NCBI GenBank assembly: GCA_001003475.1
Contig: LCPF01000001.1
Location: 101,910 to 165,909, forward strand
Reading direction: 5' to 3'
Source of the DNA: Candidatus Jorgensenbacteria bacterium GW2011_GWA1_48_11
GTDB taxonomy: Bacteria; Patescibacteriota; Minisyncoccia; UBA6257; GWB1-50-10
Length of the DNA stretch: 64,000 nt
The position numbers and the translations under genes were made by a program. The notes under the pieces are model-generated. The model ran no database searches. It was not told the DNA's origin and saw nothing but the letters and a program-made list of their open reading frames with translations. This document shows, one piece after another, positions 42,033-44,910 of this stretch (position 1 is its first letter; each line of letters begins with the position of its first letter).

Positions 42033-44543
42033 TCAATTATAAACTTGGTTCTTTATTTGGAATTGGATCTCACCGTTCTCCAGAACCATCTTCAGGGTAT
42101 CGCCGCGGCTGATTTCCTTTCGTAAAATCTTTTCCGCCAGAACGCCCCGCACCTTCGCTGAAATCACTTGCCGCAGGGGCCGGGCGCCGAAAACCGGACT
42201 GTAGCCCAGCTCGGCGATTCTTTTCACGGCGGCATCGTCAAAATCAATATCAACGCTTTGGGCTTCGCGCACCGTACCCGCCACCTCCCTCAAAAGAATT
42301 TTGGTTACGGCGTAAATCTCATCCTCACTCAAGGTCTTGAAAACAATAGTGTCCGAAAAACGATTGATGAGCTCGGGCTTGAAATAATCGGTCAGTTTCC
42401 GTTTCACCTCGCCAGCAATGTTTTCAATGGTTTGGCCTTTTTCAAGTTCACCTTTAATGAAATCCGAATTGGCATTCGAGGTGGCGATAATGATCGTATT
42501 CTCGAAATTAACGGTCCGGCCCAAACTGTCGGTCAAGCGCCCGTCGTCGAAAACCTGGAGAAACAAATTCAGAATGTCCGGGTGGGCTTTTTCGAATTCA
42601 TCAAGCAAAACCAGGCTATAGGGCTTGGCCAAAACCGCGTCGGTCAAAGCGCCGGTTTTCTCGCCGTCCGGCGTACCAATGAAACGGAAAATGCTTTGTT
42701 TGTCCTGATATTCGGACATATCAAAACGGATCATCATTTCCTTGGAGCCGAACTGAATCTCCGCCAGAATCTTCGAAAGCTCGGTCTTGCCGACGCCGGT
42801 CGGGCCCACAAAAAGGAAGGTGGCGATCGGCCCGCCCTTGCGGCTGAGCCCGCTCCGGTATTCCCTCAAAGCCCGGGCTACGGCTGAAACCGCAGCCGAC
42901 TGGTCGATCAGTTTTTCATGGATAATAACCTCGAGATTCAAGAGTTTCTCGGTTTCCGCGGCACCAGCCGCCCGGATCGGAATCTGGCTTTCCTCTTCGG
43001 CCACGGCGACGACCAAATCAGCCTGAAGTTTTTTAAATTTGTTCTCTTTGGCCTTCGCTAAAGATTGTTTCAAAAGATCGGCCGCGCTCGCCGGCAGGGG
43101 TTTCTGCCGCAAATAGCGGTGGGCCAGCTCAACTGATTTTTGAATCGCCTTGAAAGTGATGAAAACTTTGTACTGGCGCTCCAAAATCAGGCTGTAATAA
43201 GTGAGGTAGCGGACGGTTTCGGCCTCGCTGATCTCCGTGAAATTGATCACTTCAAACTGTTCCAGAAAATCCGAGCGCGGCTGGATCAGAGCCTTGAATT
43301 CCCGAGGATAGGTCTCGCCGATCACGGGAATCGCCTGGTTCTTCACGATCGGCAAAAGCAGGTCGATCGCGTTTAAGGCCCTGCCTTGGGCCGTCCGGAA
43401 AAGATCGTGAATGTTCGGGACCACGAGAACGATGTTGCCGGCCATCACGATTTCCTCAACCATTTTCTGGATTCGACCCGACAGAATTTCGGGCGTGGCG
43501 TTCGCAAGAAAATCGGCGATCTCGAGCGAAACCAGACGTTTATCGAAAAGGATCGGCGGCACCTCGTCTTTCACGATCCGGAAAGCAAGGTGGGCAATGA
43601 CCGAAGATTTGCCGATTCCCGGCTCGCCCACCAAAAGGGCGTTGGGCTTGCCCGGCCGCGAGATCACGTTCAACATCTCGCTGAATTCTTTTTCGTGGCC
43701 GATCAAAAAGCCGGCCCGCTCGGCTCTCGCAAGATCCGTAAGGTCGGTACTGAACTGATCCAATGTCGGCGTGGGCCGGGCGGTCCAGGCCCGATTCATC
43801 ACCCGGTGCCTCAAAAATCTTTGTTGCCGGACAAAACCACCCAAGACGGAGGGCAGACGGCTGATCGTCCGGAAAAAACCGCGGAAGCGGCCGAAAATTA
43901 TCGCTTCCTGTAAATCGTCGGCTTTGACATCGAACAGGTCCAACAGTTTGGAAATTTCCGGCAAATTCAAACCGGCCAAAGCCACTAAAAAATTCCTGGG
44001 TTCGATGAATTTCTCCTTAAGAGCCGAGGCATTAACATAAGCCTCTCTCGTCAGAACCTCGATCATTCTTAAAATTTCCTCGCGATTCTGAATTTCCGAA
44101 GAAGCCAATAAGAATTCGTCGTTCTTTTTCATAAAATCCTTAGCCGGCACGTCAAGGCGTTTCAAGGCTTCTTGGATTTCCCGACGATCAATTAAAACTC
44201 TTAAAAAAGTTAGGTAAAAACTCCGGCGCGTCACGAGGGCTTTGTGGAAAGCCAGGCTTAAAAGGTTGTAAGCCCCCGGCGTCACCGCCAGGGCTAAATT
44301 TATCTTTTCGCCTTTGAGCTCGTTCAGCGATTTTTCGCCCTCGCCCAAATGGATCAGCCGATCAATCAGGAAAAAGCCGCCCAAAATTCCCAACCAATTC
44401 AAATATTGGACATTGGAAGAAAAAACCAGAACGAAAATAGTGGCCGCAAAAACAATGTAAAAAGCCCGGGTAATGAGCCTCATCAAAAACTCGCCCAAGG
44501 TGCTCAAATTCAGCCGCCGCTCCCGAAAGTAAACATCCTGCAT
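42033..44543 (-). CDS. Membrane-anchored two-module AAA+ Clp/Hsp100-family ATPase (N-terminal TM helices, Clp_N-like region, D1 with degenerate Walker B, intact D2).
   Basis: TM AFYIVFAATIFVLVFSS and WLGILGGFFLI. D1 Walker A GEPGIGKSS, with D1 Walker B position reading VLVVPNIHDLF (Pro-Asn in place of Asp-Glu). D2 Walker [10 protein letters not shown] with Walker B LVLLDEFEKAHPD. No IGF/LGF ClpP loop was seen. Confidence 0.8.
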   Translation of the reverse strand: MQDVYFRERRLNLSTLGEFLMRLITRAFYIVFAATIFVLVFSSNVQYLNWLGILGGFFLIDRLIHLGEGEKSLNELKGEKINLALAVTPGAYNLLSLAFHKALVTRRSFYLTFLRVLIDRREIQEALKRLDVPAKDFMKKNDEFLLASSEIQNREEILRMIEVLTREAYVNASALKEKFIEPRNFLVALAGLNLPEISKLLDLFDVKADDLQEAIIFGRFRGFFRTISRLPSVLGGFVRQQRFLRHRVMNRAWTARPTPTLDQFSTDLTDLARAERAGFLIGHEKEFSEMLNVISRPGKPNALLVGEPGIGKSSVIAHLAFRIVKDEVPPILFDKRLVSLEIADFLANATPEILSGRIQKMVEEIVMAGNIVLVVPNIHDLFRTAQGRALNAIDLLLPIVKNQAIPVIGETYPREFKALIQPRSDFLEQFEVINFTEISEAETVRYLTYYSLILERQYKVFITFKAIQKSVELAHRYLRQKPLPASAADLLKQSLAKAKENKFKKLQADLVVAVAEEESQIPIRAAGAAETEKLLNLEVIIHEKLIDQSAAVSAVARALREYRSGLSRKGGPIATFLFVGPTGVGKTELSKILAEIQFGSKEMMIRFDMSEYQDKQSIFRFIGTPDGEKTGALTDAVLAKPYSLVLLDEFEKAHPDILNLFLQVFDDGRLTDSLGRTVNFENTIIIATSNANSDFIKGELEKGQTIENIAGEVKRKLTDYFKPELINRFSDTIVFKTLSEDEIYAVTKILLREVAGTVREAQSVDIDFDDAAVKRIAELGYSPVFGARPLRQVISAKVRGVLAEKILRKEISRGDTLKMVLENGEIQFQIKNQVYN

Positions 44544-44544
44544 G

Positions 44545-44910
44545 TTAGAAGCTTATGATTATCCGCCAGACGAGATAAGGCGGCGTTAAGATCCAGAAAA
44601 CATAAAGAAGGGTGGCGACTGCGAAAAAAATCAGATAAACAAAACCGCCGAAAATGAGACGGAAAAATCGGAAGATAAAACCCAGAACATAACCGATCAC
44701 GGAATAATCCTTGTAAAGCGGCTGGAAAAGATTCTTAAGGGTGATGCGCCAGGCCAAATAACGGTCCAGACGCTCTAGGCGGTCGATCACGAAATTGGAG
44801 TAAACCCGGGCGCTTTTCACGTACCAGTGGCGCAAAAACTCGAAAAGCCGGTAAAAAAATCGCTCGCCCAAATAAGCCAAAGCTCCAAGCATAATTCCAT
44901 TATAACCCAC
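44545..44910 (-). CDS. Small polytopic membrane protein, co-operonic (1-nt gap) with the membrane-anchored AAA+ gene.
   Basis: 121-aa hydrophobic ORF. Confidence 0.45.
   Translation of the reverse strand: MGYNGIMLGALAYLGERFFYRLFEFLRHWYVKSARVYSNFVIDRLERLDRYLAWRITLKNLFQPLYKDYSVIGYVLGFIFRFFRLIFGGFVYLIFFAVATLLYVFWILTPPYLVWRIIISF

Follow-up and report, generated by a model that had tools for sequence, protein, structure and literature searches.

In threading AAA+ proteins the key residue of the pore loop is aromatic, a point also made in a review of the Torsins (PMC5425593). ClpB and the other threading Hsp100 motors, as described in PMC6546751, touch their substrate via conserved pore loops. The Torsins, which are relatives of the Clp/Hsp100 proteins, have no aromatic pore loops. 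A hydrophobic domain at the N-terminus associates them with the membrane, they need type II transmembrane (TM) cofactors, and they are believed not to thread (PMC5425593). The subject of the present analysis is a pair of adjacent genes in a 64,000-nucleotide stretch (the window) of contig LCPF01000001.1 from Candidatus Jorgensenbacteria bacterium GW2011_GWA1_48_11. One gene encodes a two-ring ATPase of the Clp type and the other a small membrane protein. In our reading, which is held with moderate confidence, the two gene products are subunits of a Patescibacteria-specific membrane ATPase complex derived from Hsp100, which would be driven by the second AAA+ ring (D2) and would not thread polypeptides.

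The two AAA+ rings of the ATPase

The states of the catalytic and substrate-binding motifs were read from a HMMER alignment to Bacillus subtilis ClpC, a BLASTP alignment to the window's own ClpB (encoded at 3780-6410) and column statistics. The latter covered 120 database orthologues (plus the window's ClpB) and 76 species-level genomes, to which the counts given below refer. Aromatic pore loops are absent from both rings. In the first ring (D1) the canonical KYRG is replaced by A-T/P-P-E, which reads ANATPE in the window protein, and an aromatic residue is absent from the loop in 76/76 species. In D2 the four-residue YVG(Y/H) is deleted in all 76 species and a conserved G-(T/S)-P-D-G-x-x-(T/S)-G turn is left, of which GTPDGEKTG is the window's version. 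The initial annotation had suggested that the ATPase is an unfoldase or extractor, and the loss of the aromatic loops from both rings argues against that activity. To our knowledge, an aromatic pore loop persists in one or more rings of every characterised threading AAA+ protein. That both rings have lost theirs is the most consequential point, and the initial annotation had missed it, together with the loss of the D1 Arg fingers and the single-pass nature of the small subunit.

D1 retains the Walker A sequence GEPGIGKS, whose Lys is found in 75/76 species; the following Ser/Thr is changed to Glu (GK-E) in 18/76. The Walker B motif hhhhDE has become hhhhPN. The segment NIVLVVPNIH aligns opposite IILFIDE(L/I)H of both ClpC and the window's ClpB, so that the Asp-Glu pair is replaced by Pro-Asn, as had been claimed, and is not retained at a shifted position. 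Pro occupies the Asp position in 70 of the 76 species, and the Glu position is taken by Asn in 45, Asp in 20, Ser in 4 and Glu in 4. The Arg-finger pair ERRF is replaced by LEQF, and no D1 Arg finger is present in the 76 species. D1 is nevertheless still constrained, with many invariant residues, and the replacement motifs (P-N, TPDG and LEQF) are conserved in their own right. All catalytic motifs survive in D2, namely Walker A, Walker B (DE in 76/76), sensor 1, an invariant N-R-F Arg finger and sensor 2 GARP, in agreement with the earlier view that this ring is intact. D1 is thus predicted to be catalytically dead and D2 to be catalytically complete. The accompanying proposal that D1 binds ATP and cannot hydrolyse it is plausible for the window protein, given its GEPGIGKS; ATP binding by D1 is not general, because GK-E stands in the Walker A of 18 of the 76 relatives.

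The ATPase shares with the class I proteins ClpA, ClpC and ClpB the order of a probable Clp_N-like region, D1 (AAA and AAA_lid_9), D2 (AAA_2) and a ClpB_D2-small domain. Pfam recognises AAA_2 (3e-50, residues 572-731), ClpB_D2-small (6e-19, residues 738-818) and AAA_lid_9 (1.5e-8, residues 439-506). The Clp_N-like region is probably real, as had been proposed, and divergent: the family profile matches the N-domains of ClpC and ClpA in PDB with E-values of 2e-6 to 6e-6 over residues 87-218, and Pfam Clp_N is matched in 14/76 family members, the window ATPase itself not being among these. On the NCBIfam models the ATPase scores 444 bits for ClpB (TIGR03346, cutoff 1232) and 401 bits for ClpA (TIGR02639, cutoff 993). 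The paralogue at 3780-6410 reaches 1211 bits on TIGR03346 and is a near-canonical ClpB, to which the D2 of the ATPase is 39% identical. As had been proposed, the window encodes a second two-module Hsp100-type ATPase distinct from ClpB.

The AlphaFold2 (AF2) model of the ATPase was built with a 107-sequence family alignment and has a mean predicted local distance difference test score (pLDDT) of 84.3; it is a monomer, as are all AF2 structures discussed here. In a Foldseek search its D1-D2 body superposes on the protomers of ClpC and ClpB hexamers with a root mean square deviation of about 3.1-3.4 A over about 580 aligned columns and E-values down to about 1e-56. The best matches in both sequence and structure are ClpC, ClpB and ClpA. 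Two elements of these proteins are missing. Compared with the window's ClpB, the coiled-coil M-domain between D1 and D2 is represented by a gap of about 125 residues, so that the short D1-D2 junction is like that of ClpA, and because the M-domain is missing the family has no regulatory site for DnaK or MecA. The ClpP-docking loop of D2 (IGF/IGL/VGF) is likewise a gap in the alignment where B. subtilis ClpC has ...KYVGFNV..., which bears out the earlier statement that no such loop is present. Unlike the class I proteins, the family has a TM hairpin, a Pro-Asn D1 Walker B, no D1 Arg fingers and an obligate small membrane partner; it has no aromatic pore loops, no ClpP-docking loop and no M-domain, and it scores below the curated cutoffs. 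By fold the family clearly belongs to the Hsp100 superfamily, and it fails the defining features of ClpA, ClpB and ClpC.

Many orthologues carry the public names 'ATP-dependent Clp protease ATP-binding subunit' or ClpC (NCBI, JGI). No curated Pfam or NCBIfam family specific to these ATPases was matched at the equivalog level, and no description of the family was found in literature searches on Clp, AAA+ or transmembrane proteins in the candidate phyla radiation (CPR)/Patescibacteria. PADLOC returned partial matches of about 108 bits over D2 to the Clp-like ATPases DolB and PDC-M37B, the partner and the neighbours being unmatched. Membership of the Clp-like ATPases of anti-phage defence is not supported by these partial matches, and the locus belongs to the syntenic core genome.

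Membrane segments, the small partner and the fused relatives

The N-terminus of the ATPase had been described as carrying two TM helices. The first of these is strongly hydrophobic. The second comprises only about 14 hydrophobic residues, with a 19-residue Kyte-Doolittle (KD) hydropathy of 1.3, and is followed by a conserved D61-R62-x-x-H65. The loop between the two segments is four residues long and has no Lys or Arg in the 76 species, in which the median number of Lys/Arg is 3 in the 22-residue N-terminal tail and 4 in the 20 residues past the hairpin. Within the first 260 residues of the AF2 model the only two strands are formed by residues 3-5 and 80-82, which fits a hairpin with both ends on the inner side (N-in/C-in). 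A two-helix membrane hairpin is supported by the predicted helices, the charge distribution and the topology of the fused relatives described below.

The N-domain is joined to D1 by a conserved linker. P231 is invariant in both alignments, and N250, R251, W253, T254, P257 and T258 are invariant in the alignment A2; the N-R-x-W...PTP part is common to the fused and zinc-ribbon relatives. The linker also contains a near-invariant L-P-x-V-L-G-G-F (LPSVLGGF, residues 230-237; residues 230-234 at 43842-43856, minus strand), which recalls the (I/L/V)GF tripeptide of ClpP docking. That it is a displaced docking motif is unlikely, because it would lie on the ring face opposite the ClpP docking side and is absent from the fused relatives.

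The partner had been called polytopic. It is a single-pass protein. Its N-terminal region of about 80 aa is helical and basic, the family medians being 11 Lys/Arg and 5 Asp/Glu. One strong TM helix comes next, with a median KD of 2.68 across the family, and the chain ends in a tail of about 12 residues. The helix is preceded by an amphipathic juxtamembrane segment carrying the invariant R81 and R84. The AF2 model (pLDDT 85.7) consists of two long helices, 4-52 and 71-120, and has no AAA fold. Searches of Pfam, NCBIfam and PADLOC with the small protein gave no family even at E up to 10, and Foldseek of its model against PDB gave no match below E 3.8. A profile of the small protein, searched against 1.84 billion representatives, retrieved 354 clusters at 50% identity; at 90% identity the small protein forms at least 993 clusters. 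Among the 150 best of the 354 clusters nearly all are stand-alone proteins of about 110-120 aa and a few are long. One of the long ones (P0269, 1540 aa, 9 short matches) was set aside as an apparent false positive, being repetitive and hydrophobic.

When the same profile was used to scan one genome per species, 150 encoding genomes were found and 80 loci were kept. The family is therefore present in at least 150 species-level genomes. All encoding genomes are Patescibacteria, to which the family is confined (the fused forms come from metagenomes of unassigned taxonomy), and their labels are mostly those of the Parcubacteria group: Jorgensen-, Brenner-, Wolfe- and Liptonbacteria, Paceibacterota and Minisyncoccia. 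In 84/84 loci, or 81 once duplicates are removed, the small gene lies directly upstream of a Clp-like gene with the same orientation. The downstream proteins of the paired loci are similar from their first residues on; four of the contigs end inside the gene, which leaves those copies truncated. The intergenic gap has a median of 4 nt and is 30 nt or less in 70/81. In the window the junction reads ttcTAA-c-ATGcag, so the 1-nt gap noted in the initial annotation was correct. Three orthologues that were reached by way of the ATPase likewise have the small gene upstream. The flanks of the pair vary: a uracil-DNA glycosylase (UDG) gene is upstream in 46/81 loci, and the genes downstream include a major facilitator superfamily (MFS) gene in 33, NUDIX in 19 and PolX in 9.

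In several more distant relatives the small module and the ATPase are a single polypeptide. These are P0383 (832 aa, 5 contigs), P0394 (838 aa), P0395 (841 aa), the protein encoded at L094:4974-7505 (843 aa) and the truncated P0381, and they were found on several independent contigs and in several samples. With the N-terminal 311 aa of P0383 as query, a homologue search yielded one fragment. Their order is the small module, one more hydrophobic helix, the Clp_N-like region, N-R-x-W...PTP, D1 and D2. The fusions imply that the small protein is a subunit of the ATPase or interacts with it directly; adjacency and fusion together support a functional link between the two. As exactly two hydrophobic helices separate the N-domain of the small module from the ATPase, both should lie on the same, cytoplasmic side of the membrane, and this placement lends support to the view that the hairpin of the split form truly crosses the membrane twice. 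Small genes lying next upstream of the fusions were considered as a second small module and rejected, since they encode unrelated signal-anchored proteins.

In the fused proteins the D1 Walker B is acidic, reading DE in three and EE in two; the D1 Walker A is intact and one Arg is still present. The pore loops are again without aromatics, in D1 in 5/5 and in D2 in the 4/4 that can be read; the D2 loop is of full length without Tyr in one (GAPPGSKDSSAGG) and six residues shorter in the others. The combination of an acidic D1 Walker B with pore loops devoid of aromatics indicates that the inactivation of D1 is derived. Membrane insertion, the small module and the loss of the pore loops would then define the whole family, and D1 inactivation would be a later, lineage-specific event. 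Three of the four fused forms whose context is seen lie between dprA and topA. The fourth, P0383, lies between a Mur ligase gene and prfB-ftsE-ftsX-M23 peptidase.

Four further small proteins are divergent and stand alone, and all four co-directional downstream genes start with a hydrophobic N-terminal region. Their contigs break off early: only L096 reaches D1, and the L098 and L099 sequences stop in the N-domain or ahead of it. Three of the four divergent ATPases (L096:1062-2513, L098:585-1172 and L099:470-1330) have a CxxC...CxxC zinc ribbon N-terminal to the TM hairpin, which recalls the N-domains of ClpX and ClpE that bind zinc. In the D1 of L096 the Walker A is GCGRT, with Lys changed to Arg, and the pore loop is AKAGGD.

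Possible modes of action

In the mechanism proposed for the complex, the N-domain of the small subunit and the ATPase would both be cytoplasmic. The subunits would assemble, probably in a 6:6 ratio, into a ring with its D1/N-domain face toward the membrane. D1 would be a structural or assembly ring, as is the D2 of NSF, and the D2 of the present ATPase would be the only motor. Without grip loops, the hydrolysis of ATP would most likely drive a conformational or assembly cycle rather than the threading of a polypeptide. Such a cycle may act on the small subunit, on the TM helices or on a membrane client bound by the N-domains, and its logic would be like that of Torsin with LAP1 and not like that of ClpB or FtsH.

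Torsin and its cofactors LAP1/LULL1 of the eukaryotic endoplasmic reticulum and nuclear envelope resemble the pair in several respects: a relative of the Clp/Hsp100 D2 with an N-terminal hydrophobic segment and no aromatic pore loops acts with a transmembrane cofactor (PMC5425593). Torsins differ in being single-ring and lumenal and in receiving their Arg finger from an AAA-like cofactor, whereas the present family has two rings, would be cytoplasmic, carries its own D2 Arg finger and has a small helical partner without an AAA fold. The resemblance to Torsins, drawn by analogy, is one of logic. With NSF and p97 the family shares the apparent retention of one ring, here D1, for assembly while the other hydrolyses, by comparison with the known role of the NSF D2; NSF and p97 are of a different AAA clade, are soluble and keep the pore-loop aromatics in the active ring. 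FtsH, Msp1 and Bcs1 likewise have an N-terminal TM anchor that sets the entry face of the ring at the membrane, and they have no sequence relationship to the family beyond AAA+. Unlike the family, FtsH and Msp1 have only one AAA ring, whose pore loops are of the canonical aromatic type, and FtsH adds a protease domain. Bcs1 is a TM-anchored AAA protein that does not thread unfolded chains.

Several points weigh against a non-threading complex of the two proteins. The Clp_N-like domain, the ClpC-like conformation of the protomer and the intact D2 engine would also be expected of a true unfoldase, and the short D2 turn, (T/S)-P-D-G, is conserved and could still contact substrate. The second helix of the hairpin is short, and the topology is deduced from hydropathy, charge and AF2. 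Common descent accounts for part of the adjacency signal, since gene order is generally conserved in the clade. The complex, its stoichiometry and its ATPase activity are inferred from sequences and from models of monomers.

The alternative that survives best is an unfoldase or extractor that is tethered to the membrane and threads its substrate, like FtsH or Msp1. Its D2 would pull membrane or secretory proteins through the central pore, and the small protein would serve as adaptor or substrate receptor. The N-terminal anchor would turn the D1/N-domain entry face to the membrane, as it is generally known to do in FtsH and Msp1. D2 has every ATPase motif, a Clp_N-like domain is kept and the protomer superposes on substrate-bound ClpC and ClpB. 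Against it, no aromatic or bulky hydrophobic pore-loop residue is found in either ring in 76/76 species and in the five fused proteins (with D2 readable in four), the D2 loop is 4-6 residues shorter or of full length without Tyr, and the Torsins, as relatives without an aromatic pore loop, are thought not to thread (PMC5425593). An unfoldase of this kind is, in our estimation, unlikely.

A less probable alternative still is a membrane conduit or motor for cargo that is either not a polypeptide or is folded, such as DNA in uptake or repair or a folded protein as in Bcs1, with the TM ring coaxial with a widened channel. The shortened pore loops would indeed widen the channel, and each hexamer would contribute 12-18 TM helices. 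DNA-metabolism genes are neighbours both in the split clade (UDG, EndoQ-like, PolX, NUDIX and Ogt) and in the fused forms, 3/4 of which are flanked by dprA and topA; P0383, however, adjoins a Mur ligase gene and prfB-ftsEX instead, and neighbourhood is weak evidence in compact CPR genomes. Very little would protrude from the cytoplasm, namely the 4-residue loop and the tail of about 12 residues, and the D2 turn has a conserved Asp rather than basic residues.

The names given by NCBI and JGI to many orthologues, and the best matches to ClpC, ClpB and ClpA, would make the ATPase an ordinary ClpC/ClpA-type ATP-binding subunit feeding ClpP. A ClpP partner is effectively excluded because the docking loop is missing, its place being taken by a gap; in addition, the scores lie far under the equivalog cutoffs, D1 appears to be dead and the pore loops are gone. 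No ClpP gene was found within the 64-kb window (of a contig of about 636 kb) by tblastn with an Escherichia coli ClpP sequence, and one may exist elsewhere in the genome. Finally, a decaying paralogue or pseudo-enzyme without ATP-driven function, which the loss of the D1 Walker B, the Arg fingers and both pore loops might suggest, is extremely improbable because the protein is conserved, with 56-87% identity in more than 100 orthologues, more than 100 invariant residues that include all catalytic residues of D2, replacement motifs that are themselves maintained and an occurrence in no fewer than 150 species-level genomes.

Gene neighbourhood and implications

The coordinates of the pair and of its parts are collected in Table 1. 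The small gene likely starts at the ATG at 44892 (Met7 of the open reading frame, ORF) and encodes 115 aa, because its homologues of about 114 aa begin at this residue. Because a strong terminator-like hairpin and a promoter-like site lie just upstream of the small ORF, the pair probably opens a transcription unit. The unit continues past the ATPase gene into a half-size MFS gene, PolX, NUDIX and Ogt, with no convincing terminator on the way. The MFS-like gene (222 aa, about 6 TM; 41361-42029, minus strand) starts 3 nt past the stop codon of the ATPase gene and may be a frequent accessory of the module, being next downstream in 33/81 related loci. Directly upstream of the terminator-like hairpin lies a gene for a small, HsmA-like membrane protein (TIGR03987, 72 bits against a cutoff of 78.2) at 45016-45342 on the minus strand. 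DNA-repair genes surround the pair at 38939-41364 and 45443-46693 on the minus strand and encode an EndoQ-like TIGR00375 protein, PolX, a NUDIX hydrolase and Ogt.

Table 1. Positions in the window of the gene pair, its domains and flanking signals, together with the loci of the fused relatives
Feature	Position	Strand	Remarks
ATPase gene	42033..44543	minus	836 aa, ATG start; GenBank KKU91542.1, UniProt A0A0G1UBP4, 'ATPase AAA-2 domain protein'
TM1 of hairpin, residues 23-42	44418..44477	minus	KD 2.27, family median 2.04; AF2 helix 15-42
Second short hydrophobic helix, residues 47-60	44364..44405	minus	14 residues, family median KD 2.11; AF2 helix 46-64
Clp_N-like double-repeat N-domain, divergent, residues 87-218	43890..44285	minus	Family profile against PDB, Pfam
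Conserved N-domain-to-D1 linker, residues 227-262	43758..43865	minus	LP.VLGGF ... LRHRVMNRAWTARPTPTLD; AF2 confidence low
D1 AAA+ module	43026..43757	minus	Walker A 43605-43628, Walker B 43413-43433; predicted catalytically degenerate
D2 AAA+ module, Pfam AAA_2 residues 572-731	42351..42830	minus	Walker B LVLLDE 42597-42614; pore loop 42651-42677
ClpB_D2-small C-terminal domain, residues 738-818	42090..42332	minus	Pfam
Small membrane protein gene	44545..44910	minus	ORF 121 aa from GTG 44910; GenBank KKU91543.1, 'hypothetical protein'
Single TM helix of small subunit, residues ~85-108	44587..44658	minus	KD 2.49, Hessa sum -3.2
Promoter-like site TATACA-16-TATAAT	44937..44964	minus	Consensus match only; such matches not enriched over shuffles
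Terminator-like hairpin	44969..44996	minus	10-bp stem, 7 GC, then T-run; 3' of upstream HsmA-like gene
Fusion loci	L085:6001-8499, L088:6001-8517, L090:2244-4769, L094:4974-7505		Single polypeptides, 832-843 aa; metagenomes

Other parts of the window hold further features. At 36691-37493 on the plus strand a gene at the position of SmpB in related loci (Pfam SmpB in L001 and L004) is immediately followed by a transfer-messenger RNA (RF00023, 101.6 bits). Trans-translation is probably present, and neither ClpP nor ClpX was seen in the 64-kb window. The isoleucyl-tRNA synthetase (IleRS) of 1201 aa at 31407-35012 on the minus strand (TIGR00392, 843 bits in two stretches) has an insert like a histidine phosphatase or phosphoglycerate mutase at residues ~519-680 (NF038349 2e-23, TIGR03162 4e-21), which is unusual for IleRS. 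A tRNA gene at 47419-47490 on the minus strand lies within the 3' end of a 459-aa O-antigen-ligase/Wzy-like ORF (47411..48790, minus strand), the last ~26 codons of which are probably a read-through of the tRNA gene and not coding.

A broader interpretation, which we put forward tentatively and regard as possible rather than probable, is that the pair, the fused forms and the zinc-ribbon relatives represent a previously unrecognised bacterial membrane machine. It would be an Hsp100-derived non-threading double ring in which D2 drives an assembly of 12-18 TM helices with the small subunit or cycles its oligomeric state. It might be Torsin-LAP1-like in logic or a Bcs1-like conduit, with a role in the envelope or in DNA handling that would be specific to the reduced, episymbiotic Patescibacteria.

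Hsp100/Clp proteins are the textbook threading AAA+ machines, and the family would show that their scaffold has been reused for different work. The engine of one ring is under strong selection, the pore loops have been discarded, the other ring has been inactivated, the membrane has been entered and a small subunit has been acquired. Many CPR genomes carry these proteins under the label 'Clp protease ATP-binding subunit' or ClpC, and reconstructions of metabolism and proteostasis are distorted as a result. The family offers a bacterial, heterologously expressible system for the study of non-threading ATPases of the Clp clade, such as the Torsins. Given its wide distribution, it may be part of the envelope biology of the Patescibacteria.

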